From Candidatus Hodarchaeum mangrovi (GTDB lineage: Archaea > Asgardarchaeota > Heimdallarchaeia > Hodarchaeales > Hodarchaeaceae): 64,000 nucleotides of DNA. Below the pieces are notes generated by a model. That model searched no databases, had not been told where the DNA came from, and worked only from the letters and a program-made list of their open reading frames with translations. Shown here piece after piece: positions 1 to 52,805 of this stretch (its first letter is position 1; the number at the start of each line of letters is the position of its first letter). The stretch covers positions 1 to 64,000 of the forward strand of contig JAEOUE010000197.1 in assembly GCA_016839515.1 (NCBI GenBank), read 5' to 3'. A program made the position numbers and the translations under genes.

Positions 1-596
1 AAAACAAATTTATCCCAATTGAATAAATTTTCAATTCCTCCCCAATAGAATAATAAGGGAATTAGTGTAAATAGAAATACGGATGGGCTTAAGACGGCCC
101 ACGGTTGCTGAGAAAAGATTCCAAACGCAATTTTTATATTTTCAATCTCACCAAGAGCAACATTTATACCAATGAATGTTGACGCAAGAATACTAACTCC
201 TGTAATAAAATCCCCAATCTGTCGTAAATTGTTATTTGTTTCTTGAGTTGGTTCATATTTGCTCTTCCAAGAGGTTAAGAAGCCAATAAGATCTTGAAAT
301 AATCCAAAAGGGCATCCCCATGCGCAAAAAAGTCGTCCAAAAATTGATCCAATAATAAAAAATGAAGCTAATGGGATTAATGGTAGTAATCCTGTAGTTA
401 ACATTCTCTCTAACAAATAAAAAGCTCCTTCGGAGCTAGAAGTCAACATTTTTGGCATATCGACAGGTAATACTAACCATGTTGCTCCTATTCCAAAAAA
501 AGTAAGATTCATTAAAATAAACATGATAGTTTGAATAATTGTACGTAAAATCCGTAATTTCGTTAAATTTACCTTTGATTTCTTATGCCATGCCAT
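1..596 (-). CDS. Membrane-bound 4Fe-4S binding protein, NapH/MauN/polyferredoxin family (3' end runs off the window)
   Basis: Not in the ORF track. Manual translation from ATG at 596 gives MAWHKKSKVNLTKLRILRTIIQ...GRLFCAWGCPFGLFQD, with the CxxxCP motif and several TM helices. An AGGTGA RBS lies upstream. Confidence 0.8.
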   Translation of the reverse strand, partial: MAWHKKSKVNLTKLRILRTIIQTIMFILMNLTFFGIGATWLVLPVDMPKMLTSSSEGAFYLLERMLTTGLLPLIPLASFFIIGSIFGRLFCAWGCPFGLFQDLIGFLTSWKSKYEPTQETNNNLRQIGDFITGVSILASTFIGINVALGEIENIKIAFGIFSQQPWAVLSPSVFLFTLIPLLFYWGGIENLFNWDKFV

Positions 597-606
597 CTTT
601 ATTCAC

Positions 607-753
607 CTATGGTATAGGTATTCCTGCTGTTGCGCTCTCTGTGATTTCTACAATTAAATCTTTAATTAATTCGAACTGATTCGCTGATATTGCAAGTGTT
701 AAGAAAATAAATCCAAGACTTAAGGCAATAAAAGCTTTGGCATTACTCCTCAT
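607..753 (-). CDS. Small 48-aa single-TM protein upstream of the NapH-like gene
   Basis: Manual translation MRSNAKAFIALSLGFIFLTLAISANQFELIKDLIVEITESATAGIPIP*. The TAG stop overlaps the RBS of the downstream gene. Confidence 0.6.
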   Translation of the reverse strand: MRSNAKAFIALSLGFIFLTLAISANQFELIKDLIVEITESATAGIPIP

Positions 754-906
754 TGTATAAATTCCTTCTAATTATTTGAATATAGAAACAATAATGAAAT
801 CGATTATATTTTAGGCTTTTCAGCAAATCTTCTTATTTGTTGTCCTAGCTATTGTTATTTAGATAAGGGATATACAATATCCGTTGCTAGTTTTTTAGAA
901 ATAGTC

Positions 907-2148
907 TTAAAATCCCCAATCTCTACTTTTACTGAATCCATATGCAATTATTCGGGCGTTCCAAAATTTTTTTATCATTGAAGGTTTAGATAAAGCTTTA
1001 AATGATAATAGAAGTTTTTTCCAAATATTCATACGCGTTATATCCCAACCATCAATTAAGGATCCAAAATTCTCTAAGTCATTAGCAGTAAAATCTGAAT
1101 AAAGGATTTGATGAGCTTTTTGAATTATTGGGTCAGCATATGGCATCATTCGGCATTTATACTCATATTCTAACAATTTTTTCTTTGAAAAATTTTTAGA
1201 TTTACATGCTTCTATTGCAGTTTGTGCAGCTAGCCATCCTGAATGAATTCCTATTGCAATACCTCCATAAAAGATTGAATTTGTTAAGCCAGCTGCATCA
1301 CCAGCTACCATATAGTTATCAGTGCATAAATTTGGTATTGGTCCACTTGCAGGAATAATACCAGCAATCCTTTGGATAATATCTTCTTCTTTAACATCAT
1401 TAAAATGAAGATTCATGAATTTTTTAAGAATAGTGTTCGGATTTGAAGCAGGGTCAACAACAATTCCAATATTGGTTGAACTTTTTTTGGGAAAGACCCA
1501 TCCATAATGCATCTTTGGAAATCGATTGAAATCGAAATAAAAGTCTAGTGCATCGGTTAAAATTCCTTTAATATTAAATTCTACTCCTTGAACATATTCT
1601 GATGGTCCTTTGAGTCCTATCATTTTTACACTATGAGCTGAAGGTCCATCACACCCAATCACTAAATTTGCTCTATATGTTTGTGAAGTGGTTTTTACAA
1701 TTACAGAATTACCATCCCTTTTTACCTCATTTACTCGTGACTGTAGAGAAAGATCAACACCATTTTTTTGAGCTTCTTTAGCCATTAAATGATCAAATAA
1801 AGGCCGATTTATAGTTACTGTCTCTAATTGAGATGTAGCTACTCCCGATGTACCAAAAAAAAATCTTTGAGTGCTAAGAATCCGTTCAATCAAATAATTC
1901 TTACGATTTATTATAAAATCGTCGTAAGTTTCTTCTGAATTATATTTTGGCATATTTTCAACGGTTCGCATTTTATCAATAGATAATCCTTCACCGCATG
2001 CAAGGGGGTGACCAATTTTTGGATGTTCTTCAACTATAACAGCATTTAATCCTGCTTTAGCTACAGATATTCCAGTGGATAATCCTGTTGGTCCTCCACC
2101 AATTATTAGAACATCATATTGTTGCATTGCCGTCCAAGTACCTCTCAA
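907..2148 (-). CDS. Geranylgeranyl reductase-family FAD oxidoreductase (DGGR-like)
   Basis: YDVLIIGGGPTG FAD motif, CGEG, YGWVFPK and GDAAG motifs. The real start is probably the ATG of MQQYD. Confidence 0.85.
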   Translation of the reverse strand: MRGTWTAMQQYDVLIIGGGPTGLSTGISVAKAGLNAVIVEEHPKIGHPLACGEGLSIDKMRTVENMPKYNSEETYDDFIINRKNYLIERILSTQRFFFGTSGVATSQLETVTINRPLFDHLMAKEAQKNGVDLSLQSRVNEVKRDGNSVIVKTTSQTYRANLVIGCDGPSAHSVKMIGLKGPSEYVQGVEFNIKGILTDALDFYFDFNRFPKMHYGWVFPKKSSTNIGIVVDPASNPNTILKKFMNLHFNDVKEEDIIQRIAGIIPASGPIPNLCTDNYMVAGDAAGLTNSIFYGGIAIGIHSGWLAAQTAIEACKSKNFSKKKLLEYEYKCRMMPYADPIIQKAHQILYSDFTANDLENFGSLIDGWDITRMNIWKKLLLSFKALSKPSMIKKFWNARIIAYGFSKSRDWGF

Positions 2149-2242
2149 GGAATATATAGCATTCTGATCTCTTTAATTATATAATTTGTTAATTCATTTG
2201 AACCAAAAAGAAGTTTTATTTATTTACTACTAAATTGGTTAA

Positions 2243-2563
2243 ATGGGAAAATCAATGAATCATTCTCCAGTAAAAATTGGAACTTGCTTAAATAAAGCTC
2301 AAGGTAAGATAATTGTTCAATTAGAGGGGCCAAATTTACCTAAAATCGGTTCTTATGCTCAGATTAAGGAAAAAGGTCAATTTATCACAATTGGAGAGAT
2401 AACAGAGGCTATAGGATCAACTCAATCACCTTGGATTGTTATCTCGCCTTATAAAGATAGATTAAAAAAGGTGAATGAGATGGAGGAAATCTACAGCCAA
2501 GAGAATTATCGCTCAAAAATAAAGAATAAAAAAACCAAGTATCGGTATAAAAAGAGGGTTTGA
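2243..2563 (+). CDS. gar1: H/ACA RNP subunit Gar1
   Basis: PKIGS...IGEITEAIGSTQSPWIVI matches the Gar1/Naf1 beta-barrel pattern; basic tail; next to rps8e. Confidence 0.75.
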   Translation: MGKSMNHSPVKIGTCLNKAQGKIIVQLEGPNLPKIGSYAQIKEKGQFITIGEITEAIGSTQSPWIVISPYKDRLKKVNEMEEIYSQENYRSKIKNKKTKYRYKKRV

Positions 2564-2657
2564 TATATAAAACATTCGTTATATGCCTTTAAATGGTTAG
2601 TTTTGGCGTCTATAGCGATTTTTTCATTTTAAAAGAAATTATTAAGAGGTTAATCAT

Positions 2658-3035
2658 ATGGCAAGGTCACAGAGAAGATCTGTAAGGAAGGCAAGTGGTG
2701 GAAGATACCACATTAGTACTAAAAAGAAAAAAAGGGATTTAGCACGACCAGCAGCCCTGACAATGGTCGGAACAGTACGAAAGAAAGCAATAAGAACCCG
2801 TGGGGGGAATCAAAAAATACGTTTACTTAGCTCTACTTTTGCTAATGTTTCTTCTCTAGATGGAAAAGTGACAACAAAACTTGAGATTGAAGATGTTGAA
2901 GACAATCAAGCAAATAGAGACTTTGCACGAAGAAAAATTGTTACTAAAGGAGCAATCATTCGTACATCTAAAGGCAATGCCCGCGTAACTAGTCGACCAG
3001 GTCAAAATGGAACAGTTGAAGCTGTTTTATTCTAG
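2658..3035 (+). CDS. rps8e: 30S ribosomal protein eS8
   Basis: RKASGGRY, RTRGGNQK and VTSRPGQNG motifs. Confidence 0.97.
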   Translation: MARSQRRSVRKASGGRYHISTKKKKRDLARPAALTMVGTVRKKAIRTRGGNQKIRLLSSTFANVSSLDGKVTTKLEIEDVEDNQANRDFARRKIVTKGAIIRTSKGNARVTSRPGQNGTVEAVLF

Positions 3036-9095: not shown

Positions 9096-10465
9096 ACTTT
9101 CCACCCCAGTTTAAAAATACTGAAACCATCAGTTTGGGTTATATGTGGAAAGAGTCTTTGACCTAAAGGAAATTGAGGACTTGAAACACCAACTATGATT
9201 TTTTGAGGTTTTAGTTCAAAATTAGGGAAATTCTGTAGAAACCTATGGATTACATGCTCATTTTCAAGAGGGTGTAGTGAACATGTTGAGTAAACAATGA
9301 AACTATTAGAATCGTCTTTAAGAACAGTAGAAACATTTGAAAGGAGAGTATATTGAAGATCACTCAACCATTTTGTTTGGTGTCGGTCAACACGCCATTT
9401 TGAATCAGGTCGTGAGGAAAAAGTTCCAGATCCTGAACAAGGTGCGTCAATAAGGATTTTGTCGAATCTAAAACTGAAATTTGGATGGATTCTTAGATCA
9501 GATATAACAGGGTCTATGCTTTTTAGATCAAATAATTCAATTTTTTTCTTTAATTCTTTCATACGCCTTATGTTGTTATCAATAGCAATTATTCTACCTG
9601 AATCTTGTTGTAAAGAAGCAAGATGAGTTGTTTTCCCTCCTGGAGCTGCACATGCATCTAAAATTAGTTCATGGGGCCTTGGATCGATTATATGGGAAAC
9701 AAGAGCAGATCCTTTATTCTGAACGTAATAGAAATTTTTTTTAAAGGAATTAATACGGGGAATAGGAATTTTCCATGAGATGACCCTAATAACATCATCC
9801 AAATCAGGATCTTCTTTAAATTCAACCTCTTCAGAACTTAATCTTTCTAAAATTTCAGATTTATCATAATGTAATAAGTTTAATCTTAAATATAATGGGA
9901 GATTAAGATTTCCTGCCTTTATTATTTGTTTTGTGGTTTCTAATCCATAAAAATTGATATAGTCACGGACTAACCATGTTGGATGTGCAAATTCAACTCC
10001 TAGTCTTTCTTCTTTGTTTTGAATTAATTGTAAATAAGAATCCCTATCCCATTTTAAAAGATTGGAAATTAAATTTTCTAATAAATTAGTCAGTTGAGGA
10101 TGCTTTATTTTATCAATAATTTGTTTACATGATTGAATCCACTCTGAATCCTTCTTATAAGTATCTGAAATTAGAATATAGGTTATAACTTTTAATAAAT
10201 TTCGTATATACACTGGAATTTTAAAATTAATCCGTTTTTGAACGTACAAATGAATTAATCGATTAATAATATTTTGAAATCTGACTGTTTCAAAAACTAG
10301 CTGATGAACTTGGGAATAATTTTCCTGATTTCCATCCTCCCAGATAATAGAAAATATCTTCATTGCATTTCTTAATGAGACCTGATTTTTTTGATAGTAT
10401 AAGATGATCTTTGCCGCGTTTTCAATTAATAGCAATCTTATTCTTGAATCAATGCCCTGGCTCAA
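9092..10465 (-). CDS. RsmB/NOP2/Sun family RNA m5C methyltransferase
   Basis: LDACAAPGGKT, DAPCSGSG and YSTCSLHPLENE motifs. Confidence 0.93.
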   Translation of the reverse strand: MSQGIDSRIRLLLIENAAKIILYYQKNQVSLRNAMKIFSIIWEDGNQENYSQVHQLVFETVRFQNIINRLIHLYVQKRINFKIPVYIRNLLKVITYILISDTYKKDSEWIQSCKQIIDKIKHPQLTNLLENLISNLLKWDRDSYLQLIQNKEERLGVEFAHPTWLVRDYINFYGLETTKQIIKAGNLNLPLYLRLNLLHYDKSEILERLSSEEVEFKEDPDLDDVIRVISWKIPIPRINSFKKNFYYVQNKGSALVSHIIDPRPHELILDACAAPGGKTTHLASLQQDSGRIIAIDNNIRRMKELKKKIELFDLKSIDPVISDLRIHPNFSFRFDKILIDAPCSGSGTFSSRPDSKWRVDRHQTKWLSDLQYTLLSNVSTVLKDDSNSFIVYSTCSLHPLENEHVIHRFLQNFPNFELKPQKIIVGVSSPQFPLGQRLFPHITQTDGFSIFKLGWKV

Positions 10466-11589
10466 ATCCTAACACCTTTTTTCTCTTCAAAGACAAATTT
10501 TTGCTTCATGTTTCTAAAAACTATCCCATTAAACTTTATACCACTAAATTCATCACCTTCCTGAATATCTTCGATATAAAAAGTATCAATATAGGACAGA
10601 TCAAAAGATAACATGTCCATAATTTGTCCCAAATTTTCTTTTGGATCAATATTAATTAATTGATATTTTGTGAGATCTAAGTCTACCTTTTTAGGATTCC
10701 CTTCAATAAAGGATTTTATAGGAATTTTTTCTAATTTTTTCCTTTTAAAGTCCCAATACTCAATTTTTCCGTCTCCTGATGAAATTATTTGTAAAAAATT
10801 GTCATTAATAAGAATAAAATCACCAGTCTCAAAAGGAGGTAGATTAATAAGTACAACAGGTATTCTGGGATATTCTTTCCACTTTGATTTATCAAATCCC
10901 GAAAATTCTGTAGTGATACTTACTATTCCATTATAATTTTTAGCGAAGATTCTTCCAACATTGCTTGCAGAAGGTTTCGTTTGAAATAGAGCGTCTAAAC
11001 CATTTTTGACAAATAAAATTTTTGATAAAGGATTTTTACCATTGGATTGAGGGAAATTTGAACTCAAATTTTCAATTTCTGAGGCCCACTGTTTCAATGT
11101 GTTCTCAGACTCATCCTTTTGACTTCTTATTTGGATTTTAGAGGTATATACATCAGTGAATCTCTCACGACAATCAGGACAATCCCCCCAGTTTATATCA
11201 GCTTCAAAATTATCATTAAATTCTATTAAAGGACTAAATATGTCAGGGTTAGCGAAAAAATGAATTTTACCTATAATACTTATAGGAATATTGTCTTCAT
11301 TGAAGCTTAAATGGACATCTTCAAGAATTATATCTTTTGGACGATAATTAAATTTCCATTCTTTTACAATATATTTTGATAGAGCTGAATCTACTTTTTG
11401 GGAGCCAACATCTGCGAGGAAAAAACTTTTCCAATGTCCATTTATAAAAATTAACTCACAATGGATACAGGATACAATTTTAAGATTTATTTTTTCTCTT
11501 ATTAGTGTATTAGCCTCAATGTAACATTCTTTGCATTGGTGCTTAAAAAATTCTTCTTTTTTGCCACATATAATGCATTGAGAATCCAT
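10462..11589 (-). CDS. nmd3: NMD3 family large-subunit biogenesis protein
   Basis: N-terminal CxxC/CxxC/CxxC, later CPDC...YTSKIQIRS; typical NMD3-DUF424-aIF2beta gene order. Confidence 0.85.
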   Translation of the reverse strand: MDSQCIICGKKEEFFKHQCKECYIEANTLIREKINLKIVSCIHCELIFINGHWKSFFLADVGSQKVDSALSKYIVKEWKFNYRPKDIILEDVHLSFNEDNIPISIIGKIHFFANPDIFSPLIEFNDNFEADINWGDCPDCRERFTDVYTSKIQIRSQKDESENTLKQWASEIENLSSNFPQSNGKNPLSKILFVKNGLDALFQTKPSASNVGRIFAKNYNGIVSITTEFSGFDKSKWKEYPRIPVVLINLPPFETGDFILINDNFLQIISSGDGKIEYWDFKRKKLEKIPIKSFIEGNPKKVDLDLTKYQLINIDPKENLGQIMDMLSFDLSYIDTFYIEDIQEGDEFSGIKFNGIVFRNMKQKFVFEEKKGVRI

Positions 11590-23162: not shown

Positions 23163-24164
23163 ATGGTGATCATAAGAATGAAGGATTATCTGTTAAAGGC
23201 TAGTAATGCCTTAACTCAGTTAAATAATACTGTTTCTATTAATGCCCGAAGTATGGCTGACGTAGTTTTAAAGATTTATACTGAGTTCGAAGAATATAGG
23301 TATATTGCTGAAACTATTCCTGATTTTATAATTCGTCCAGATAATACAAAATCAAATCTTAAAGCAAGTGGTGAGATCCGAGTAGCACAGTTATTAACCT
23401 CTATTCTGTGTGATCGAATAACAGAATTGTCTTTAAAGTTATGTGAATCTCTTGAATTCAGAGAGGAAGAAGTTGATGTCAAATTAGAAATCAGGGAGAT
23501 AAAAGATCAAGTATTCCGATTAGGTGAAGTGATCCATGTCCAACAAAAACTAGCTGATGGTGCTCCTGTATCAACAGAGGCGATTCAAGATTTAAGTAAA
23601 CGTTACGAAGCTAGAATAATTCAGCTAGAACAAGAACTCCTTAAAAAAGAGGGACGCGCGTTAACAATTACTGCATTAGATGCCGTTAAAAAGCCTAAAA
23701 TATTTGGTAAAGAGAAATTCAAATCTTCACTAGGAGATCTTATTTTAAGTTTTGGAAAAAATCTTCGTGCTAGCTCTGGGGGGTATATATCTCTTGCAAA
23801 TCTTTATACTGCCCTTAAAGAGCAAGTTCCAGACATTAATTTTTCAACAAAGGATCTAGAAGAAGTTTGTAAGATTCTAGCTAAACAAGACCTAATTTCG
23901 GGTCTTACAAAAAGATCTGGGGTTAAAATAGTAGAATTTATACCTGTTAATTTAGGAGAAGATGCAAAGAAAATATTTTCTTTAGCATCAAAAAAAGGGT
24001 TTGTAACATATGAGGAGGTTATCCTGGGAACAAAATGGGATCAACCACGTGTTGATCGTGTCCTTGAAAGCCTTGTAAATCAGAAAATAGCTCGAAAAGT
24101 ATCTAGTCTTGATTCTGGGGATCAGTATTTCTTCCCTGGATTGTATGGAGAAGATAATTGGTAG
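23163..24164 (+). CDS. ESCRT-II Vps22/Vps36 (EAP30)-like tandem winged-helix protein with N-terminal helical/coiled-coil region
   Basis: GGYISLANLY...STKDLEEVCKIL and GFVTYEEV...KWDQPRVDRVLESLV...YFFPGL resemble the SNF8/Vps22 C-terminal winged-helix domains. Confidence 0.8.
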   Translation: MVIIRMKDYLLKASNALTQLNNTVSINARSMADVVLKIYTEFEEYRYIAETIPDFIIRPDNTKSNLKASGEIRVAQLLTSILCDRITELSLKLCESLEFREEEVDVKLEIREIKDQVFRLGEVIHVQQKLADGAPVSTEAIQDLSKRYEARIIQLEQELLKKEGRALTITALDAVKKPKIFGKEKFKSSLGDLILSFGKNLRASSGGYISLANLYTALKEQVPDINFSTKDLEEVCKILAKQDLISGLTKRSGVKIVEFIPVNLGEDAKKIFSLASKKGFVTYEEVILGTKWDQPRVDRVLESLVNQKIARKVSSLDSGDQYFFPGLYGEDNW

Positions 24165-24174
24165 GTAATGAAAA

Positions 24175-25059
24175 ATGACTGAAGTTGATACAGAAAGATT
24201 TGGTGGATTATTTCGTAAAATCGGGGATGCAGTTCATATTGGTACAAAAACGTTCAAAGGAAAGACAATTCTTGGCTCTCAATTTGGATCTGATGCTTTA
24301 ATATGGAGGATAAAATCTGATGATGTAGAAAATTTTCGTAAAATAGACGGATTCATCGTAAAAGATCCAGAAAATGCTATCCTCCTTCAATCAGGGACTC
24401 TCGTAGGCGTTGCTGGAAGCGGAATATATGAACTTGATAAAGATGCAAAAAAACCTGGTAGTGAAATTATCTGGGTTACAAAACGAGAATTTGTTATTAA
24501 ATGGGGTAGTCCTGGAGTTTATACAACTGATAATATTATGGTTGGATGTTTTGGCATCTCTCGTATGAGAGTAGTAAATCCTCGGAATTTTATTATGAAT
24601 ATTGTATCACATAAACAATATTATACTAGTGAAGAATTAAGAAACTGGGTTAAACAGACAATTACCTCTGCAGTTAAACATGTTATGTCACGTTATACCG
24701 TTCCTGAATTATTAAAGGAAAGAAGGACTTTAGCTATTCAAACGAAATCCGAACTAGCTCCTGAGACATCTAGATGGGGTTTAGAACTTGTAGGATTAGA
24801 TATTGGGGGTTTTAAAGTACCAGATGAGTACCAAGCCCTACTTTCATATGAGATTGAAAAACAGGTTTTAGAAACCCAAAAAGAATTGGATGAAGCACGT
24901 AAATCCATGAATGAAGTTTCTGAACTGATAAAGAAGTATGAACATATGATAGAACAAGCTGATGAAATGTTCTTATCAGGAAAATTATCAGAAGAACGAT
25001 ACAAAGAACTAACAGATAAATATTCAAAAAAATTAGCTAAACTAAAGGCTCAATTTTAA
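24175..25059 (+). CDS. SPFH/band-7 domain protein (YdjI-like) with C-terminal coiled coil and SHOCT-like motif
   Basis: LIWR...IVKDPENAILLQSG...GIYEL, IKWG, RWGLELVGLDIGG; C-terminal FLSGKLSEERYKEL. Confidence 0.8.
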   Translation: MTEVDTERFGGLFRKIGDAVHIGTKTFKGKTILGSQFGSDALIWRIKSDDVENFRKIDGFIVKDPENAILLQSGTLVGVAGSGIYELDKDAKKPGSEIIWVTKREFVIKWGSPGVYTTDNIMVGCFGISRMRVVNPRNFIMNIVSHKQYYTSEELRNWVKQTITSAVKHVMSRYTVPELLKERRTLAIQTKSELAPETSRWGLELVGLDIGGFKVPDEYQALLSYEIEKQVLETQKELDEARKSMNEVSELIKKYEHMIEQADEMFLSGKLSEERYKELTDKYSKKLAKLKAQF

Positions 25060-25069
25060 TAACCAGCCT

Positions 25070-26836
25070 TTACATTTTCCGAGTTTGGAGGGAACCTCCA
25101 CAATCTGGACATGTAGTTACCCCTACAGCTTTGATTTCCTCATAACAATTAGCACAGATATTATTTCTGCATGATATGCACTGAAATCCAATTGCTGAAT
25201 GATTAGCTAGATTACATATGCTACAATCGAACTTAAAACCAAGCTTTTCAAGAATGATAGAAGTAGATGGAATGTCAATATACCCATTTATCTCTCCATA
25301 AATAATTAAATCCTCAATTTCTCTTATTATATTAGATTCTGAATCTTTAATCTCTCTAAAAATCTCTTGAAGGGGAACTTTCCTTGTTTTTTTATCTTCT
25401 ATTAAAAATTTTAAATTGAAATTCAAACTAGGGGGCGAGTCAATTTTTGAAAATTCATCTAAATACCATCCATTTTTCAGTGGTCCTTTTTTGCAAAAAT
25501 AACACTGCTCAGCACTAACAAGGTTGAAAGAATGTGTATATGTTATTCTACAGTCAGGACAATTCCTAGGAAGGTCTATAATAAATGCAGCGATATTCCC
25601 GCAAAATGGACATTCATGTTTACTATTTAAGGGTCTGCAATCAGAACATACAATCCTTCGGCAATTTTGACACTCATAATAAAGATTTGGATCTGAATAA
25701 GAAGAAGTATCAATTTGACAAAATACTTCAAACTTCTTCACACCTCGAATGAGAAATGGAGAGGAACTTTCACCAGCAATAATACGAAAACCAAGGACTA
25801 AGGATAAATTTATGATTACATTTAATAATAAATCAGTATCTAAATTAAGATTTCGTGCAATTGATTCTACATCTATTCCTCTATCTAGCCAGATTTCTAA
25901 TCGCGGAGAAATATAGACATTCTCTCTAATAATCCCATCTAAACTTTTATTTATTTTATTTAAAAATGAAATAAACTCTAAATATTCAATATTAAAGCGT
26001 TGTAACCAGAATTCAATCGGAATATGACGATAAATATAGATATCAAAGAGTATTTGCGAAACCATATGGCTTATTGAGTATATATGTTGTTGATCAGAAG
26101 AAAAAAGGAAAGGTATTCCTTTACAATTTTCTTTTAACATTTTTTGGCATTTTTCAATATCAATTCTAAATAACCTGCTAAGAGTCTTTAGAGATATTTC
26201 TGGTTCAAGAATAAAGGTAGTATTGAGAAAACGTTCGAAAAACTTGATATCCTTCTCAATTTGGTTTGGAGTCGAAAAATCTAAAAAAGTTAGATTATAT
26301 ATACGATTATTTAATGGATCTATATATCCGTAAAAGGTTCCTTGTTGTGCCATTAAATCTAAAATGGCTTCTAAGTGTTCTTCGGACCAATTGATTTGTT
26401 TTAAAAGAAATTTGAGGTCTATACTTCCTGTTTTTCCTAGTATATTCTGCAGAAAAATCATAGCTCCATTTGGTGTAAAAAAATATCTTCGAATCCGGTC
26501 AAAGAATCCATCATATTTCTGAAGTGATTGAAACATCACAATCTCTAGGATCTCTCCAGGTAAATTGGTTGCATCAATCAAATCACAAATGTCTACATTT
26601 CCTTTTTGGGTTAAATTATGTTCAATTAATTCATTAATGTAAGAAAGCGGAATGTAAAAATCATCATCTGGTGTTAAAATTCCATTCAACACTTTTTCAC
26701 TAATGCTTTTTCTTATAAAGAGAGCGATTTTTTGAAGGTCTTCTGAGCTATCAAAAGATTGAAGAGACACAGGTTCTGTCAGTTTCTGAGCGAAATCTAG
26801 CCATTTATCCTCTTTTTTTCGAAACATATTATTCAT
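25070..26836 (-). CDS. Winged-helix/PCI-repeat protein (UFL1/DDRGK1-like) with RING-like Zn fingers; candidate E3 ligase
   Basis: PCI-type motifs GTFYGYIDP and IIYGEINGYID; UFL1-like N-terminal segment; internal and C-terminal four-pair Cys clusters (CSIC-CISC-CANC-CPDC). Confidence 0.6.
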   Translation of the reverse strand: MNNMFRKKEDKWLDFAQKLTEPVSLQSFDSSEDLQKIALFIRKSISEKVLNGILTPDDDFYIPLSYINELIEHNLTQKGNVDICDLIDATNLPGEILEIVMFQSLQKYDGFFDRIRRYFFTPNGAMIFLQNILGKTGSIDLKFLLKQINWSEEHLEAILDLMAQQGTFYGYIDPLNNRIYNLTFLDFSTPNQIEKDIKFFERFLNTTFILEPEISLKTLSRLFRIDIEKCQKMLKENCKGIPFLFSSDQQHIYSISHMVSQILFDIYIYRHIPIEFWLQRFNIEYLEFISFLNKINKSLDGIIRENVYISPRLEIWLDRGIDVESIARNLNLDTDLLLNVIINLSLVLGFRIIAGESSSPFLIRGVKKFEVFCQIDTSSYSDPNLYYECQNCRRIVCSDCRPLNSKHECPFCGNIAAFIIDLPRNCPDCRITYTHSFNLVSAEQCYFCKKGPLKNGWYLDEFSKIDSPPSLNFNLKFLIEDKKTRKVPLQEIFREIKDSESNIIREIEDLIIYGEINGYIDIPSTSIILEKLGFKFDCSICNLANHSAIGFQCISCRNNICANCYEEIKAVGVTTCPDCGGSLQTRKM

Positions 26837-27001: not shown

Positions 27002-27322
27002 ATGAGTCATTCAGAATTTAGATGTATAAATTGTGGATATATTCCACATGAGTCTCCTGTATCAGGGAATTGGTATTGTCCCAAATGTGGAAAGCGATCA
27101 ACGATAAAAATTGAACAGCCTCTCCACGTTCGAAGTTATTTACGGCATAAAAGTGTTCATCAACGAAGTAAAGATGAAATATATAATGATATTTATAAAA
27201 AACTTACTCTAGAAGAAAAACAAGAATTGGGTTATAAAGAACCTTATATAAATCCAGTTCTATCTTCAGTAGAACCCAAAAAGAGGGAAACCATTCGTCT
27301 TTTCTTACCCTCTGATAATTAA
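27002..27322 (+). CDS. Small Zn-ribbon protein
   Basis: CINCG...CPKCG. Confidence 0.65.
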   Translation: MSHSEFRCINCGYIPHESPVSGNWYCPKCGKRSTIKIEQPLHVRSYLRHKSVHQRSKDEIYNDIYKKLTLEEKQELGYKEPYINPVLSSVEPKKRETIRLFLPSDN

Positions 27323-28560
27323 TTATTTTTTTTCTCAAATATAACTTTAATTCTTTTGTCTTTTTCACCATATAAGGGTGAAAAAGTTATTCGATCCCCA
27401 TTCGAGAGAATATCCTTTATTATATCTCCCTCATTCAGATGTTTATTTCCTCTAAATGCTAAGAATTCATCTTCATATTTATTATTTACTTCCTGAACAA
27501 TTTCTATGAATCTATTATCTGGATTTACATGGATCATTGATATTTGATCTGAATTTATTCCCCTATTTCCACAAACAAAACAATCGGGATCTGCTAATAG
27601 TTTAAAAGTGGAAAAAGTGCCTGTAAGTCCTGAATAAATAGTTAAAGAAGGAATCTGGAACCTCTCCGATTTTCGTAATCTTCTCAAGATTTTTTGATCT
27701 TTTCTTTTAAGAGAAGACCTTTTTTCAAAAAAAAGTGTGTTAATTATCAATTGAGATTGAATACCACTAATTACTGAATTGACAGTTATTATACTTGGAA
27801 TATGAGTAAGTATGAGTTGTTTTAATTCTTTGATATCATAACTAGGAAATTTGTGATTTTTTGTGCAATTATTTGCAATTTTCTGAAGAAATTTCATATC
27901 TTTATTAGAATTTTCTCTGGGCTCTCGATTATATCTTGTATAAAAGGAATAAAGAGCCTTCCAAGCACAATGTTCACGAATTCTCGGAGTTCCAACCAAT
28001 GTACATGGAGCTGTCCAAATATTTGTTTCATCTGGTGGGGGAGGATTGTCACATGCTAAACAAGATGAAAAATTCTTCTGAATATATTGAACTTGTCCAA
28101 TGTATCCATCAGTAGCAGAATCAATATATGGTTTAGATAATTCAATTGCTAATGAATTAATATATTGACGAGCTAAAAAATTATCGACGCATCCAGCAAT
28201 AATGTCAACTTCTTCAAAAATTTCAGTAGGGATGTCTTGGATTTTAATTGAAAATGCTTCAACATTTACTTGTTTATTGAACATCGTACTAATTCTATCT
28301 TTCGCAACTTCTGCTTTACTCTTTCCAATATCTGTTTCTCGAAAGAGCATTTGACGATTTAGATTTGAATATTCAATTGTATCAACATCAACCAAAATTA
28401 ATTTTCCAACGCCTAGGAGTGACAGATTTTTTATAACCTCACTTCCAGTGCCACCTATGCCCACAACAAGAACTGAACTATTCTGGATTAATTTTTGATC
28501 CCATAAAACTAATCGTTCTTGTCTATCATACCGCAAGTTATATTGATCTTCTTGTGACAT
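27319..28560 (-). CDS. Ubiquitin-like activating enzyme E1 (ThiF family, UBA2/UBA3-like)
   Basis: RYDRQ, GIGGTG, DVDTIEYSNLNRQ, catalytic-Cys segment PCTLVGTPRIREHC, Zn pairs CLAC/CFVC and a probable C-terminal ubiquitin-fold domain. Confidence 0.92.
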   Translation of the reverse strand: MSQEDQYNLRYDRQERLVLWDQKLIQNSSVLVVGIGGTGSEVIKNLSLLGVGKLILVDVDTIEYSNLNRQMLFRETDIGKSKAEVAKDRISTMFNKQVNVEAFSIKIQDIPTEIFEEVDIIAGCVDNFLARQYINSLAIELSKPYIDSATDGYIGQVQYIQKNFSSCLACDNPPPPDETNIWTAPCTLVGTPRIREHCAWKALYSFYTRYNREPRENSNKDMKFLQKIANNCTKNHKFPSYDIKELKQLILTHIPSIITVNSVISGIQSQLIINTLFFEKRSSLKRKDQKILRRLRKSERFQIPSLTIYSGLTGTFSTFKLLADPDCFVCGNRGINSDQISMIHVNPDNRFIEIVQEVNNKYEDEFLAFRGNKHLNEGDIIKDILSNGDRITFSPLYGEKDKRIKVIFEKKNN

Positions 28561-28593: not shown

Positions 28594-28923
28594 TTATCCA
28601 CCCTTAATCTGATCAGGGACAATCATAAGCATTGCATTTTCTTCAATGTTGTAACTTGATAAGCTATTTGATGGATTCATGCGTCTACCTTTGTATAATA
28701 GAGCAATTGGCACTACTTCAGGAATATTGAACGCATCACGAGCTGCTCCAATAGCTTGAAAAACGCTCCCATTCATATTGATATATTTTTCACGAACGTT
28801 TTGATCTGGAGGGAGCTGAGGATCTTTAAAACGTACTTTCACCATTTTTTCTATACTTGAATCGGAGGGACTTTTTCTGACTGAATTATCCCATATAACA
28901 TCTTTTTTAGACAATATTATCAC
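28594..28923 (-). CDS. Ubiquitin-like protein with exposed C-terminal GG and UFM1-like features (alternative start ATG 28845, 83 aa)
   Basis: LLYKGRRMNPSNSLSSYNIEENAMLMIVPDQIKGG* is a beta-grasp pattern; directly upstream of E1. Confidence 0.85.
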   Translation of the reverse strand: MIILSKKDVIWDNSVRKSPSDSSIEKMVKVRFKDPQLPPDQNVREKYINMNGSVFQAIGAARDAFNIPEVVPIALLYKGRRMNPSNSLSSYNIEENAMLMIVPDQIKGG

Positions 28924-28934
28924 CTTTTATTAAA

Positions 28935-29735
28935 TTAGACATATAGTAAACGTTCAATTTCGGATAGAGTTGTTAAAAGATCAATTCTACCTTTTGCATA
29001 ATCCTCTAAAGGACCTTTAATGAGCGGATATGTGTTTAGTAGTTCACTTTCGAGCCCTATCGGATAGTTCTTTTTTCTTTTGATAATTAAATTAATGATT
29101 TCCCCATCTTGTGCATAGAATTTTACAATAATATCTTTTGTACTAACCGTTGAATCATAGTTTGTAAGGATTTTTTTGATAAGTGGGTCTTTTTCATATT
29201 CAACTGTTGAAAATTCAGGTTTTTTTATGCTTACATCAACCTCCCCTAAGGCTTTTGGAATTTTATCCTCCGCAAGCTTGTAGATTTCTTCTAATACGTT
29301 GAGAATGCTTGAAGAATTAGGAGTCCAAGATTTCATCGACGGTAAATCGTTGAGTTCACAATCTAGAATTTCTCGAAGTTGACTGGGTCCATCGATATAT
29401 GGACGAGCAGGCAGATCATCTAAAACTACGAGCAATGGAAATGCATAGGCCCCTACTTGCATTTTGATTCTGATTTTTCCAATCTCATCCCCAATATATT
29501 CACCAGGAAAGTTTTCTAATACTTTTTGCCCTTCTTGGTAAATCAAATAGTAAGATTCAGCTTTTAATTCATCATCGACAATCGATTCATTTTCAGCTGT
29601 GAAAGAGGACCGTTTTATGTAATTTGTAAGATCACAATAATCACACTTCACAGGAAATTGAAAAATGGGTTTTTGAGAGAGAGGAGCACCACAACCATTA
29701 CACTGCGCAATATTACTCTGAATTTCGAAATCCAT
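28935..29735 (-). CDS. Zn-ribbon + UEV-like (inactive E2 fold) protein, Vps23/TSG101- or BRCC45-like
   Basis: CNGCGAPL...CDYC ribbon; LPSMKSWTPNSSSILNVLEEI resembles the end of a UEV domain; C-terminal KGRIDLLTTL resembles a steadiness box. Confidence 0.55.
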   Translation of the reverse strand: MDFEIQSNIAQCNGCGAPLSQKPIFQFPVKCDYCDLTNYIKRSSFTAENESIVDDELKAESYYLIYQEGQKVLENFPGEYIGDEIGKIRIKMQVGAYAFPLLVVLDDLPARPYIDGPSQLREILDCELNDLPSMKSWTPNSSSILNVLEEIYKLAEDKIPKALGEVDVSIKKPEFSTVEYEKDPLIKKILTNYDSTVSTKDIIVKFYAQDGEIINLIIKRKKNYPIGLESELLNTYPLIKGPLEDYAKGRIDLLTTLSEIERLLYV

Positions 29736-29983: not shown

Positions 29984-30583
29984 ATGAGTGTTTTAAGAGA
30001 TCCATTATATCGAACTCTAAGTTATTACCGAAGTGAGATAGCTATGCAAGACCTGCATTCAAGAAGGTTAAGAGAAGAATTTAAGAGAATGTTAAAGATA
30101 TTTCCACCAAAATCCAGTCATATTAAATGGAAAATAATCGATAATGACCTTCATCATTATCGTGCGACTATTTTTGGTAAAACTGGGACACCATTTGAAG
30201 GTGGAAAATGGGATATTACAGTAGATTTACCACCCGAGTATCCGTTCAAACCTCCCATTGTTAACTTTATAACACCTATCTGGCATCCGAATATTGCTGT
30301 TGGAAAAACAAAATGGACTTGGGGATCTAATGTATGTTTAAGCTTGGTGAATTGGAATAATTTGGGGAAACCAGGCGGCTGGAAAGAAACGATTACTTTA
30401 CCCAGTGTATTTGAACATATTGAAATGATGTTGGATATATATGAAAGTGTTGATAATGCTGACTTTCCTGAGTATCTTGTTGATCCAGAGGATCCATTTA
30501 ATCCAGAAGCAGGAAAAGAGATGAAAGAAAACTTTCGGGCTTACTGGGAAAAAGCTTCCGATTGGACAAAGAAGCATAGCTGA
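29984..30583 (+). CDS. Ubiquitin-conjugating enzyme E2
   Basis: RRLREE, GTPFEGG, PEYPFKPP, HPNI, catalytic VCLSL and DPFNPEA motifs. Confidence 0.95.
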   Translation: MSVLRDPLYRTLSYYRSEIAMQDLHSRRLREEFKRMLKIFPPKSSHIKWKIIDNDLHHYRATIFGKTGTPFEGGKWDITVDLPPEYPFKPPIVNFITPIWHPNIAVGKTKWTWGSNVCLSLVNWNNLGKPGGWKETITLPSVFEHIEMMLDIYESVDNADFPEYLVDPEDPFNPEAGKEMKENFRAYWEKASDWTKKHS

Positions 30584-30599: not shown

Positions 30600-31178
30600 A
30601 TGCCTTTAGAATCTAGCAACGAAAAAAATAATCAAAAAAATCATCTAAATGAGGTTAAGAAACCTTCATCAAAGAACAAAGACAAGAAAAAGATTGTTAA
30701 ATTAGATATTAAAGTAAAATCGGTTTCGATCTACTGGAAACACATTCAGAAGATGACCGATTTTTCCGTACGATCTATACCTAACGAAGCTATCGGTCTT
30801 CTCGGAGGGAGAGAAATTAGGAAAGGTGAACTTTTGGTAGAAAAAGTAATTCATATATCCACTGGCGACGAAGTCTCAGTATCTTTTTCAGATGATGATT
30901 TCAAGTCTTTTGAGGATCTTCTTAATGAAAATAATCATTGCATTGGATGGTGGCATTCTCATCCAGGATATGGATTGTTTCTTTCTCCAACTGATTTAAC
31001 AACTCATATTTATTCCTTTCAAGTTCATAATCCACTATCTGTGGCACTAGTTTTAGATCCAACAAGAATTAATAATCAATGTGCTGATTTTACATGTTAT
31101 CAAGTAAAAGGAGAAAATGGGATTTCACCCTTTATTTATAACGAAATAGCTAGCTATATCATAAAATCAAAAGACTAA
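30600..31178 (+). CDS. JAMM/MPN+ isopeptidase (Rpn11/CSN5-like)
   Basis: EAIGLLGG, GWWHSHPGYGLFLSPTD and ALVLDP motifs. Confidence 0.95.
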   Translation: MPLESSNEKNNQKNHLNEVKKPSSKNKDKKKIVKLDIKVKSVSIYWKHIQKMTDFSVRSIPNEAIGLLGGREIRKGELLVEKVIHISTGDEVSVSFSDDDFKSFEDLLNENNHCIGWWHSHPGYGLFLSPTDLTTHIYSFQVHNPLSVALVLDPTRINNQCADFTCYQVKGENGISPFIYNEIASYIIKSKD

Positions 31179-31237: not shown

Positions 31238-32050
31238 ATGGTGTCCACATCATTATCTTTTAGTTTTTATAAGCGTATTAGTGGTCAAATAGCTCATTTT
31301 TTCCTTCAAAGCGGTTCAGCAACTGATTATACAATAATTGACTATTTTTTTGTTTTTTTAGGTCCAGCTGCAGTACTTTTCTTTACGTTCTACCTTTGGT
31401 GGTCAGGAAAAAGGAAGAATCGCAAGATTATGAGGATAACACAGGAGTCTTTAATCCAAGTATTCTCAAAAGAGTTCGAAGATCTCATTATGGAGCAGAT
31501 GAGTTCAAATGGGGGCCTTTTATTTCCTAAATACAAAAAATCTACTGTAATTCCCTTTAAGGACTTTCGTGTTGTATTTGCTCTCGAAGAACGTCATTTA
31601 ATGCTATCTGTTATTATTTCTTGGTTTTCAGGAGCTAAAGATTATATTGCATTAGAAGCTAATCCTAAACGTGGAAAAACATCAACCAAAATTCAAATAA
31701 TTCCTAAGAAAGAAGAAGGACAAATTAAGAAACACCAAGATTTGCTATTTACTCTCGATGAAATAGAATTAGGGGTGAGACAGCTTGATGAGACATATAT
31801 TTGGAAAGCATCATCAAGCCGATCAGGATTGTATTTTCTTTCAGATAAAACTCTCCTGAAAAATATACATAAATTGCGAAACAATCTTGTTCGAATTTCT
31901 ATAGATTCCTCAGATGATCCTTCTATTCGAATATACGTCAAGATAAATAAGGATTTAGACCTTGAACAGTTATACATAACATTTATGGCTTTGTGTGAGA
32001 GGGTTGACCAAGTATTTGATAAAACTGTAATGAAAAAAACTCGAAATTAG
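31238..32050 (+). CDS. Single-pass membrane protein, CCDC47/DUF1682 (PAT complex subunit)-like
   Basis: TM helix followed by WWSGKRKNRKI...FSKEF and LEERHLMLSVIISWFSGAKDYIALE, resembling the recalled CCDC47 segments GKNKNSRL...ESNF and LKRQDLLNV...DQV. Confidence 0.6.
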   Translation: MVSTSLSFSFYKRISGQIAHFFLQSGSATDYTIIDYFFVFLGPAAVLFFTFYLWWSGKRKNRKIMRITQESLIQVFSKEFEDLIMEQMSSNGGLLFPKYKKSTVIPFKDFRVVFALEERHLMLSVIISWFSGAKDYIALEANPKRGKTSTKIQIIPKKEEGQIKKHQDLLFTLDEIELGVRQLDETYIWKASSSRSGLYFLSDKTLLKNIHKLRNNLVRISIDSSDDPSIRIYVKINKDLDLEQLYITFMALCERVDQVFDKTVMKKTRN

Positions 32051-50780: not shown

Positions 50781-52805
50781 ATGAATAAAATGTCAAATTT
50801 AGATGTATATGCGATTTCAAAGGAACTCCAAGCTCTTGTTGGATATAGAGTAGATAATATTTATCGTGATTCATCGGATAGTTTTTATTTGTTTAAATTT
50901 AAAGGAACTGGGAGTTTTAAAAATCCAATATTATTGATAGAACCAGGAGTCCGTTTTCATTTAACAGAATACAAACATGAAGTACCTCAGCGTCCAACGG
51001 AGAAGATTATGGCAGTAAGAAAACATTTAAAGGGTTCAGAATTAGTTAAAATTTGTCAAGTTGAATTTGATAGAATTATAGAGATGACATTGGTAGGAAA
51101 GCAGAAGTATCGAGTTTATGTTGAGCTTTTTGGGACAAAACCAAATTTTGTTATTGTGGGAGAGGAGAATAAGGTAATTTCAGCTTTGTGGTATAGAAAA
51201 ATGCGTCATCGCGATCTTTTACCAGGTAAGGAGTTTGAATTACCTCCAAGTAGTGGAAAGTCAATATTTCAACTTAGTCTTGAGGAATTAAAATCAAACC
51301 TAGCTTCCAGTGAATATCAAAACGAGGAAATTGTTAGAGTATTAGTACGTAAATTTGGGGGAGGAGGGGGCCTTATGGAAGAAATTTTATACAGAGCTGG
51401 GATTTTAAAATCAATTCACTGCTCTGAAATAACAGAAAAAGAAATTATGACTTTTTTATCTATTTTCAAAGAAATAGAAATAGAATTAATCAACTTAAAT
51501 CCTTCTGTAATTCTTGATAAAGACAATAAACCAGTTTTATATCAACCAATAACTCTAAGATCAATAGATGGTTTTTTAAGAAAGTTTGATACTTTTTCTG
51601 CTGCTATGGACTATTATTACTCTTCTACTCTTCCTCAGATTTCCACAAGTATAATATCAATTGATCGAAAGCGGAAAAAGATACTAGCAATAAAGGAGAA
51701 ACAGGAAAAAGCAATTAAAGAGTTTACAGCGAAGGAAATGAGATACAAATTGCTTGGAGACCGAATTTACGAGAATTTTCATTTAATTGATGATTTATTA
51801 AGTACAATAATGCAGGCACGTAAAAAGAATATATCCTGGGAGGAGATTATGAAAAAATTTGAAAGTGCAGGAACTCACAGCTTTCCTTCTTTGAAAATTC
51901 TCAAAGAAATAGTTCCCGAAAAAGGAAAAATTATTCTAATATTGGATTCAGAAGAAGTTGAAATCGATTTTCGAAAATCTGCTTCAAATATAGCTAATGA
52001 TTTCTATGAAAATGCCAAAAAAGTATCAAGGAAAATTGTACCAGCCCAAGAAGCTCTTGAAAAAACAATTGAGAGACTAAATAACCTATCAGAGGAACTT
52101 ACTATTCAAAAAGAAGCTGCATCGTTGAATTTAAAGAGACGAAAAAGAAAATGGTATGAAAAATTTCATTGGACTTATTCAAAAAATAATTTTCTAATTA
52201 TTGGAGGAAAAGATATTTCAGGAAATGAAGAGTTAGCTAAACGGCGATTAAATGAGACTGACCTATTTTTTCATGCTGAGCTTCAAGGTGCTCCTTATAC
52301 TATATTGAAACGAGAATCCAATGATTTGGATCCTTCAGAAGAAGACATTAAAACTGCTGCTCAATTAGCTGCTTGTTTTTCAAGTGGTTGGAAAGTTGGA
52401 TATGGTGCAGTAGATGTCTATTATGTAACTGGTTCAAATGTGAGTTTTTCAGCACCAAGTGGTGAATATATACCAAAGGGGGGAATAATGATTAAAGGAA
52501 CTAGGAATTATATCAGGGGAGTTGAATTAATTCTAGCAATCGGTATAGAATTTGATGAATATTCCGCTAGAATAATTTATGGAAATGAAGAAAAAATAAA
52601 ACTAGTAAGCCAAAATTACATTTTGATCAAACCTGGTTCCGAACCAAAAGGAAAATTAGCAAAAAAAATCCAAAAAGTCTTTATTGAGAATGCTAACTCA
52701 TCTGAAGAGCAAGCAAAAATACGTGCGATAGATTTGAACGAATTTGTTCACGCCATACCACATAATTCAGTGATCTATAATGTTTTCTTTTCTAAATCAG
52801 TCTAA
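50781..52805 (+). CDS. rqcH: Ribosome quality-control factor Rqc2/NEMF (NFACT, RqcH) homolog
   Basis: MSNLDV, RKHL, FDRI, KWYEKFHW, IGGKD, HAELQGAP and APSGEYIPKG motifs. Confidence 0.92.
   Translation: MNKMSNLDVYAISKELQALVGYRVDNIYRDSSDSFYLFKFKGTGSFKNPILLIEPGVRFHLTEYKHEVPQRPTEKIMAVRKHLKGSELVKICQVEFDRIIEMTLVGKQKYRVYVELFGTKPNFVIVGEENKVISALWYRKMRHRDLLPGKEFELPPSSGKSIFQLSLEELKSNLASSEYQNEEIVRVLVRKFGGGGGLMEEILYRAGILKSIHCSEITEKEIMTFLSIFKEIEIELINLNPSVILDKDNKPVLYQPITLRSIDGFLRKFDTFSAAMDYYYSSTLPQISTSIISIDRKRKKILAIKEKQEKAIKEFTAKEMRYKLLGDRIYENFHLIDDLLSTIMQARKKNISWEEIMKKFESAGTHSFPSLKILKEIVPEKGKIILILDSEEVEIDFRKSASNIANDFYENAKKVSRKIVPAQEALEKTIERLNNLSEELTIQKEAASLNLKRRKRKWYEKFHWTYSKNNFLIIGGKDISGNEELAKRRLNETDLFFHAELQGAPYTILKRESNDLDPSEEDIKTAAQLAACFSSGWKVGYGAVDVYYVTGSNVSFSAPSGEYIPKGGIMIKGTRNYIRGVELILAIGIEFDEYSARIIYGNEEKIKLVSQNYILIKPGSEPKGKLAKKIQKVFIENANSSEEQAKIRAIDLNEFVHAIPHNSVIYNVFFSKSV

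Follow-up and report, generated by a model that had tools for sequence, protein, structure and literature searches.

A UFL1-like winged-helix protein with RING-like zinc fingers beside a ubiquitin-type cascade in a Hodarchaeales archaeon: a candidate E3 ligase or adaptor

What might a UFL1-type scaffold do beside the genes of a ubiquitin-type cascade, with RING-like fingers in its own chain? The question is raised by a 64,000-nt stretch of DNA from Candidatus Hodarchaeum mangrovi (contig JAEOUE010000197.1, positions 1 to 64,000), the whole of which is called the window here, where the gene under study (25070..26836, minus strand) encodes a protein that joins a UFL1-like array of winged helices (WHs) to two Cys-rich fingers and a Zn ribbon. 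How UFL1, an E3 of the scaffold type, activates its E2 in the absence of a known E3 domain has been described as a long-standing puzzle (PMC9627666). Homologues of UFL1 in Asgard archaea have already been published (PMC10183829; PMC9192718), and the presence of UFL1 and DDRGK1 homologues in Asgard archaea that lack UFC1 is reported as unexplained (PMC10183829). The answer argued for here, which we hold with even confidence for and against, is that the protein has a UFL1-type scaffold and would serve the ubiquitin-type cascade encoded beside it as an E3 ligase or as an E3-like adaptor. The entry IPR018611 is presumably that of the UFL1 family. Hatano et al. 2022 used IPR018611 as a marker of Asgard 'E3' (PMC9192718), Koestlbacher et al. 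2026 reported Ufm1 homologues in nine Asgard clades (PMC12962969) and Liu et al. 2020 mentioned fusions of an Asgard 'E3 UFM1-protein ligase 1' with other domains (10.1101/2020.10.19.343400). A sequence-only reading of the same stretch had seen in this protein a possible new E3 architecture. The part of that claim which concerns the fusion may stand, in that no account of a UFL1-like scaffold bearing RING-like fingers was found in full-text searches of the literature or by term look-ups in Eme 2023, Makarova 2024, a 2026 structural-clustering preprint or a Hodarchaeales culture preprint (figures, bioRxiv supplements and Picchianti Appendix Fig. S1 lying outside this coverage), while the Asgard UFL1 homologues and their fusions are not new.

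A UFL1-like scaffold and its Cys clusters

The window has a GC content of ~32% and carries at 25070..26836 (-) a single open reading frame (ORF) of 588 aa, in which every string quoted by the earlier reading is present. Orthologues begin at the fourth residue of this ORF, M4 (window position 26827), and the real start is therefore probably M4, which would make the true protein 585 aa long. Related proteins carry the labels Hodarchaeales or Heimdallarchaeota, and an alignment was made of 32 orthologues that are 39-86% identical to the window protein. All 19 Cys of the three clusters, together with D376, are invariant across these 32 orthologues, so the cluster pattern is far beyond chance; the two finger clusters and the Zn ribbon that had been read from the letters alone are thus borne out, down to each Cys listed. 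Finger 1 and the Zn ribbon are the best conserved parts, with a mean identity to the window protein of 71%, the corresponding means being 28-54% for the WH segments and 38% for finger 2. The protein as a whole diverges much faster than those encoded around it (median identity 45% over loci L001-L022, as against 77% for the SPFH protein, 76% for the E2, 80% for the ubiquitin-like protein (Ubl), 70% for the EAP30-like protein and 55% for the E1), and this fast-evolving target nevertheless keeps finger 1 and the ribbon nearly fixed.

The predicted order of domains along the 588 residues is a UFL1-like WH array, finger 1, Zn ribbon, PCI-type WH and finger 2, all features lying on the minus strand. 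The chain opens with a short conserved segment (residues 1-19, 26780..26836) in which K8 is nearly invariant and W12 invariant; it is positioned where UFL1 has its E2-binding helix alpha1 (PMC10937380), and we infer that the two may be equivalent, the family profile itself aligning from residue 21/22 to UFL1 residue 20. Two UFL1-like winged helices follow, WH_N1 and WH_N2 (residues 20-185, 26282..26779), the second ending in the PCI-type hairpin GTFYGYIDP (residues 166-174), and the string GILTPDDDF...DATNL occupies residues 52-92. Residues 190-360 (25757..26269) would form WH3 and WH4, as helical or WH-like segments. Finger 1 (residues 366-420, 25577..25741) has its ligands at C373/D376, C389/C392, C397/C400 and C409/C412, and the adjoining Zn ribbon (residues 421-458, 25463..25576), with C426/C429 and C445/C448, is invariant in these positions even in the most distant relatives. 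After a variable linker comes a PCI-type WH (residues 471-532, 25241..25426) that ends in YGEINGYID (residues 513-521), and the chain closes with finger 2 (residues 533-582, 25091..25240), whose ligands C538/C541, C553/C556, C561/C564 and C576/C579 have a C4C4 RING-like spacing.

The PCI-type ends proposed earlier from these hairpins agree with the Pfam match to PF01399 (PCI), which scores 26.3 bits against a cut-off of 22 over residues 135-179 and is shared by 24/32 orthologues. WH_N2 (106-185) and WH3 (190-262) resemble the C-terminal WH in hhalign comparisons (probability 85% and 68%), and with the PF01399 match this likeness supports a tandem array of PCI-type winged helices; WH_N1 and WH4 were not recognisable as repeats by sequence comparison.

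The homology of the N-terminal part is to UFL1. When the family profile was compared with the PDB, the four top matches were all UFL1 chains (8b9x, 8c0d_A, 8qfc_B and 8ohd_A), with E-values of 7.6e-7 to 7.8e-6 over profile positions 21-169, whereas the first non-UFL1 match had an E-value of 0.0062 and the first other WH protein one of 0.08. This supports a relationship with UFL1 specifically, and not merely with any winged helix, in line with the UFL1-like N-terminus claimed by the sequence-only reading; the UFL1 segment cited by that reading is the very stretch of the solved chains that HMMER aligns to this region of the family profile. Against PF09743 (E3_UFM1_ligase), the window protein has a score of 18.1 bits, below the 23.2-bit cut-off (E = 0.0023), and 15/32 orthologues match PF09743 at E<=0.1, the best having 27.5 bits (P0039). 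The family profile also aligns colinearly, over 38-447, to P0084, a 605-aa protein with a PF09743 match of 72.8 bits and the same finger and ribbon at its end (hhalign probability 95.4%, E = 1.8e-8), and to the PF09743 region of a Lokiarchaeial family of ~790 aa (hhalign probability 93.1%, E = 3.1e-7). In a further search, the best 120 proteins listed were all from Asgard archaea.

The second eukaryotic likeness that had been suggested, one specific to DDRGK1, found no support. The DDRGK1 chain 8c0d_B matches with an E-value of 0.37, which is not significant, no match to PF09756 (DDRGK) was found in the window protein or its 32 orthologues, and the C-terminal WH maps to the PCI WH in the UFL1-like region of the Loki-type proteins (probability 84.8%) rather than to their DDRGK region (4.8%); on these comparisons it is a generic PCI-type WH and not a DDRGK-specific one. 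What is shared with DDRGK1/UFBP1 is one PCI-type WH with a hairpin of the '...G.I.G.ID' kind, whereas the window protein has neither a PF09756 match nor a transmembrane anchor.

With UFL1, the window protein has in common the N-terminal array of PCI-type winged helices and a short conserved segment ahead of the first of them. UFL1 is a protein of 794 aa with five WHs and a ribosome-binding C-terminal domain (PMC10937380), while the window protein has 588 aa, ends in Zn fingers and has no counterpart of that C-terminal region, its profile reaching only UFL1 residues ~20-250. UFL1 has been described as lacking any known E3 feature, RING included (PMC9627666), whereas the window protein carries two RING-like fingers and a Zn ribbon. 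Finally, UFL1 needs DDRGK1/UFBP1 and works with UFC1 and UFM1, whereas the neighbours of the window protein encode a ubiquitin-type cascade; in its own genome, which is 91% complete, there was no Pfam match to Ufm1 or UFC1, and the only DDRGK match had 14 bits against a cut-off of 27.8.

Archaeal transcription factors commonly combine WH domains with a Zn ribbon. The winged helices and Zn ribbons of this protein might contact RNA, DNA or ribosomal proteins, making it a ribosome or nucleic-acid binding regulator with no ligase role. The WH domains of UFL1 do contact the 60S subunit (PMC10937380), and many genes of the window have to do with translation (S27e, eIF2-alpha, S8e, L15e, NMD3 and NFACT). 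However, the net charge of the WH segments, at -10 to +1, is acidic to neutral, which sets them apart from winged helices that bind DNA, and they are of the PCI type (PF01399), which mediates protein contacts (PMC9627666), while UFL1 reaches into the tRNA sites with its C-terminal domain, the one for which no counterpart is present. We regard such a regulator as quite improbable.

The fingers and their predicted contact with the E2

In each of the two fingers, eight ligands are arranged in four pairs with a RING-compatible spacing, and these ligands are invariant (32/32). Finger 2 reads C-x2-C-x11-C-x2-C-x4-C-x2-C-x11-C-x2-C, and finger 1 has the same spacing with an Asp as second ligand, its opening being C373-Q-I-D376. 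An hhalign comparison of the two (probability 74%, E = 2.8e-5) places D376 opposite C541, and on this alignment they are duplicates of each other. A role of D376 as metal ligand is supported because the sister family has a Cys at the corresponding position.

The fingers may be cross-brace RINGs that bind the E2, a reading favoured by the spacing, a borderline match to CNOT4 and a weak complex prediction. A profile of finger 2 (16 sequences, orthologues and paralogues) found as its best PDB match the C4C4 RING of CNOT4 (1e4u_A), at a borderline E-value of 9e-4 and with all eight ligand positions aligned, followed in the ranking by the RINGs of MAT1, CNOT4 again (1ur6_B) and TRIM32. The CNOT4 RING (1e4u, 1ur6) also has eight Cys in four pairs, spaced like those of finger 2. 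In an archaeal RING E3 from Caldiarchaeum, residues I30 and W58 and the linchpin R69 have been shown to be important (PMC5654768). Finger 2 has V/I/L at C1+2 and M/I/L at C6+4 in 32/32 orthologues, and Pro at C7+1 in 28/32; placed from the RING consensus, C1+2 and C6+4 would be the counterparts of I30 and W58.

Two small archaeal RING E3s, the Caldiarchaeum srfp (PMC5654768) and the Helarchaeial enzyme that Lu et al. show to be active (10.1101/2023.07.25.550441), are encoded beside ubiquitin, E1, E2 and JAB genes, as is the target. These are described as small, single-domain RING-H2 proteins of demonstrated activity in which the linchpin is present, whereas the window protein is large, has a WH scaffold and C4C4-type fingers, and is a candidate ligase.

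A complex was predicted between the finger half (residues 362-588) and the neighbouring E2, both supplied as alignments. The ipSAE scores were 0.59, 0.63 and 0.60 (median 0.60), with 0.00 for the best of three controls, and the verdict was 'weak support'; the runs share at least 58% of their contacts, and the pLDDT of the partner is at least 73. In the calibration of this procedure, the mark was reached by 116/157 solved complexes and by 2/215 mismatched pairs. The pass may nevertheless reflect likeness rather than binding, because RING-E2 complexes have already been solved. In the ESM Atlas there was no usable match for the whole protein, and residues 362-588 gave only leads below 0.8; longer fused forms of these residues (1030-2940 aa) were also sought and none was found, which is weak evidence.

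The neighbouring cascade and the weighing of an E3 role

The genes from which the question arose lie just beyond the target. A gene for a 106-aa Zn-ribbon protein (27002..27322, +) is transcribed divergently from it, and next comes an E1 of the ThiF family (27319..28560, -) whose best PDB match is Uba1 (E = 1.3e-37, 132.8 bits), UBA5 reaching only 1e-17. Upstream in the same operon are a Ubl of 109 aa that matches ubiquitin and ends in Gly-Gly (28594..28923, -) and a protein of 266 aa (28935..29735, -) in which a Zn ribbon at the N-terminus precedes ~220 further residues. On the opposite strand follow the canonical E2 that had been noted beforehand (29984..30583, +), which has both the HPN motif and a catalytic Cys (Cys118; UQ_con 85 bits, PDB matches UBE2K, UBE2T and UBE2D), and a JAB/MPN deubiquitinase-like protein (30600..31178, +). 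On these matches the cascade is of the ubiquitin type and not of the UFM1 type, because the E1 is nearest to Uba1, the E2 is canonical and the Ubl matches ubiquitin. On the other side of the target lie genes for an EAP30/Vps22-like protein (23163..24164, +; 36 bits, 333 aa) and an SPFH protein (24175..25059, +).

Bacterial Ubl defence cassettes group genes for E1, E2, JAB and Ubl proteins. The set found here resembles them, and PADLOC returned generic matches for the E1 (62.7 bits) and the JAB protein (28.3 bits), which might suggest that the target belongs to an antiviral Ubl cassette of the Bil or CBASS type. This reading is disfavoured: PADLOC finds no match for the target, nor for the Ubl, the E2 or the 266-aa protein, the E1 is far closer to eukaryotic Uba1 (132.8 bits), and in every related genome the locus belongs to a housekeeping region of conserved synteny rather than to a variable island. 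A role in defence is highly improbable.

Among 22 related loci, all from the same genus-level clade as the window, the E1 stands beside the target in 19, and in the remaining three the flank on that side is no longer than 788 bases; all 22 have SPFH and 21 have the EAP30-like gene, and the operon of the 266-aa protein, Ubl and E1 is conserved in 17/22 as well as in G078, the one sister-family genome with the target. Adjacency to the cascade is shown within one genus-level clade.

Several of the observations made on the fingers and on the locus weigh against an E2-recruiting role. Finger 2 has Gly, Ser or Asn at the linchpin position C8+1 in 32/32 orthologues, so that, alongside the borderline score, the absence of an Arg or Lys after the last Cys sets it apart from CNOT4; in finger 1 the position is Arg or Lys in just 3/32, and this better conserved finger has no hydrophobic residue at C6+4. 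FYVE (EEA1, E = 0.0064) and ZZ (PRT1, E = 0.013) domains score close behind the RINGs, and the Pfam matches of the fingers, all below their cut-offs, are to C1_2 (15/32), FYVE_2, RING, B-box, ZZ and Prok-RING. As for the complex, at 0.60 or below the calibration mark was reached by just 18/157 solved complexes together with both of the mismatched pairs that passed. The target forms a transcription unit of its own, separate from the cascade: it diverges from the Zn-ribbon gene and converges on SPFH. Within the genus, synteny extends over the entire 17-kb region, and adjacency to the cascade there therefore says little. In G078, the orthologue follows EAP30 and SPFH on the same strand, 13 bases past SPFH, with a GTPase and a Roadblock gene next, but no E1, E2, Ubl or JAB was found on its 15.5-kb contig, and the operon of the 266-aa protein, Ubl and E1 is on a separate 10.9-kb contig without E2, JAB or target. 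Of the two families examined, one thus shows the link with the cascade, and both show that with EAP30 and SPFH. Finally, as the genome of the window has five UQ_con matches and three clusters of the ubiquitin type, the E2 next door need not be the partner.

Alternatively, the protein might have no catalytic function and act, together with the Vps22/EAP30-like and SPFH proteins, as the scaffold or adaptor of a membrane-linked module, its fingers binding protein, Ubl tags or lipid in the manner of FYVE, ZZ, B-box or PHD domains and its nearness to ubiquitin genes in one genus being a matter of synteny. EAP30-like and SPFH are the sole neighbours kept in both families, and are co-directional with the target in G078; the FYVE and ZZ scores, the mixed Pfam hints and the missing linchpin would all be in accord with such a role. 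Furthermore, a unit of WH, finger and ribbon ends many membrane proteins with large extracellular domains, and the small paralogues made of WH and finger do not adjoin E1 or E2 genes. Set against this, the best match of the fingers is a bona fide E2-binding RING, that of CNOT4, finger 2 keeps the hydrophobic E2-contact positions, the prediction of a complex with the E2 did better than its controls, if weakly, and the closest relative of the scaffold to have been characterised, UFL1, belongs to the E3s (PMC9627666). This scaffold is the main rival explanation, a serious possibility that we nonetheless find doubtful.

For an E3 or E3-like adaptor, the following sequence of events can be outlined. 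A Hodarchaeales-specific member of the Asgard superfamily of UFL1-like WH proteins would have acquired RING-like zinc modules, and its partners would be the E1, the Ubl with its Gly-Gly end, the canonical E2 and the JAB protease. One of the fingers might hold the charged E2 in the fashion of a RING, and the acidic WH array could serve as a protein-binding scaffold that selects or positions a substrate, as in UFL1. The proteins concerned are small, soluble and encoded within 6 kb, which makes biochemical reconstitution feasible. A scaffold of the UFL1 family with RING-like fingers, next to a canonical E1, E2 and Ubl, offers the testable idea that UFL1-type scaffolds began as RING-assisted ubiquitin ligases. 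Should the fingers turn out not to bind the E2, the protein would still define a widespread Hodarchaeales module of WH, finger and Zn ribbon, which also ends membrane receptors.

Other genes of the cascade region deserve mention. The 266-aa protein had no Pfam, NCBIfam or PDB match, even when a 13-sequence profile was used; an RWD or E2-like fold was considered for it but could not be backed by sequence, the single sequence and the profile both finding nothing in the PDB (best E = 0.4). The Ubl orthologue of G078 (L086, G078:C473, 6291..6632, +) has six residues past the Gly-Gly and would therefore be a pro-form that needs processing. Directly after the JAB gene of the window, at 31238..32050 (+), lies a gene for a 270-aa membrane protein with a weak match to CCDC47 (PF07946, E = 9.3e-4, 18.9 bits, cut-off 27.7), a translocon factor of the endoplasmic reticulum (ER). 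A second cluster in the same genome (L090, G000:C304:1-7000) comprises Ubl, Ubl, E1, E2 and JAB; after them comes a multi-pass membrane protein of 370 aa, which has a RING-H2-like pattern at its C-terminus (Cys/His pairs and a helix Trp) and in which Pfam finds nothing. The ordinary ubiquitin-ESCRT cluster of this genome is elsewhere (L087, G000:C153:11000-30999), with two Snf7, EAP30 (79 bits), Vps28, a UEV/E2-like protein, a Rab-like GTPase, Yip1, E1, an 82-aa ubiquitin and a separate E2; since EAP30 is present there, the EAP30-like gene of the window is a second, divergent Vps22-like paralogue.

Relatives in Asgard archaea and the origin of the architecture

A search of 400 Asgard genomes with the family profile found the full-length architecture in 22/22 genomes of the window's genus (its own included), in 1/2 genomes of the sister family and in none of the others. 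Some match was present in 167/400 genomes, elsewhere to the N-terminal WH region only and mostly in ORFs of ~790 aa. A single-protein metagenome scan started from the distant full-length relative P0065 found no relative.

The Lokiarchaeial proteins of ~790 aa (L049-L052, P0090 and relatives) are built from N-terminal Cys fingers, DDRGK (46-51 bits), PF09743 (56-62 bits), PCI winged helices, a GAE-like hint and a VPS28 C-terminal domain, and they seem to be the fusion proteins to which Liu et al. 2020 referred (10.1101/2020.10.19.343400). In these chains the DDRGK and UFL1 parts are naturally fused, as in the engineered construct crystallised as 8b9x. They share with the window protein a homologous WH array (hhalign 93%) as well as Cys-rich fingers and a Zn ribbon, but their fingers are N-terminal, ahead of DDRGK and PF09743, whereas those of the window protein come after the main WH array. 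Finger 2 may or may not be homologous to the Loki-type N-terminal finger, hhalign giving a probability of 90% with 5 sequences and 7% with 16.

The genome of the window encodes two more PF09743-like proteins, and six finger matches in total. One of the two is a HEAT and WH protein without fingers. The other is a multi-pass membrane protein of 915 aa (L053, G000:C194:3584-6701, ORF 214..2961, -), in which transmembrane helices take up ~370 residues and are joined to a PF09743-like WH array (23.7 bits) and two modules of finger and ribbon, and by this predicted layout it is a membrane-anchored version of the design of the target. In the sister genomes G070, G076, G061 and G057, further proteins (L071, L076, L078 and L079) have a large extracellular WD40 or beta-helix part, one transmembrane helix, one WH, a finger and a ribbon, and look like receptors with a RING-like output module. 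Because units of finger and ribbon recur in paralogues and in membrane proteins, the combination of WH, finger and ribbon is, as far as these predicted architectures go, a mobile module in Hodarchaeales.

A bolder reading concerns the ancestry of UFL1 itself. The archaeal forerunner of the scaffold may have been an E3 with a RING, whose partners were a canonical E2 and a Ubl tag, the RING-less mechanism of eukaryotic UFL1 having arisen by loss of the finger upon recruitment to UFC1/UFM1, and the Hodarchaeales protein would then be a living representative of the ancestral state. This we consider unlikely. If it were true, the membrane-anchored paralogue would parallel the ER anchoring provided by DDRGK1 in eukaryotes.

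As to expression, one 174-base contig from an RNA library matches 26437-26610 without difference, which gives a hint that the target gene is transcribed; the rest of an 8.1-kb stretch had no cover in two RNA libraries, a result that is uninformative on expression. A scan for bacterial-type promoters and terminators found fewer promoter-like sites than in shuffled sequences, which is equally uninformative, the models being bacterial and the host archaeal. The window also contains genes for an NFACT/Rqc2-type protein of ribosome quality control (50781..52802, +) and an NMD3 homologue (10465..11589, -), 24 kb and 14 kb away from the target, with no link shown. DNA near-identical to 25070..26836 is present in 19 public runs, one of which may be the source of the window; they belong to seven studies, of sediment, marine sediment and soil metagenomes.

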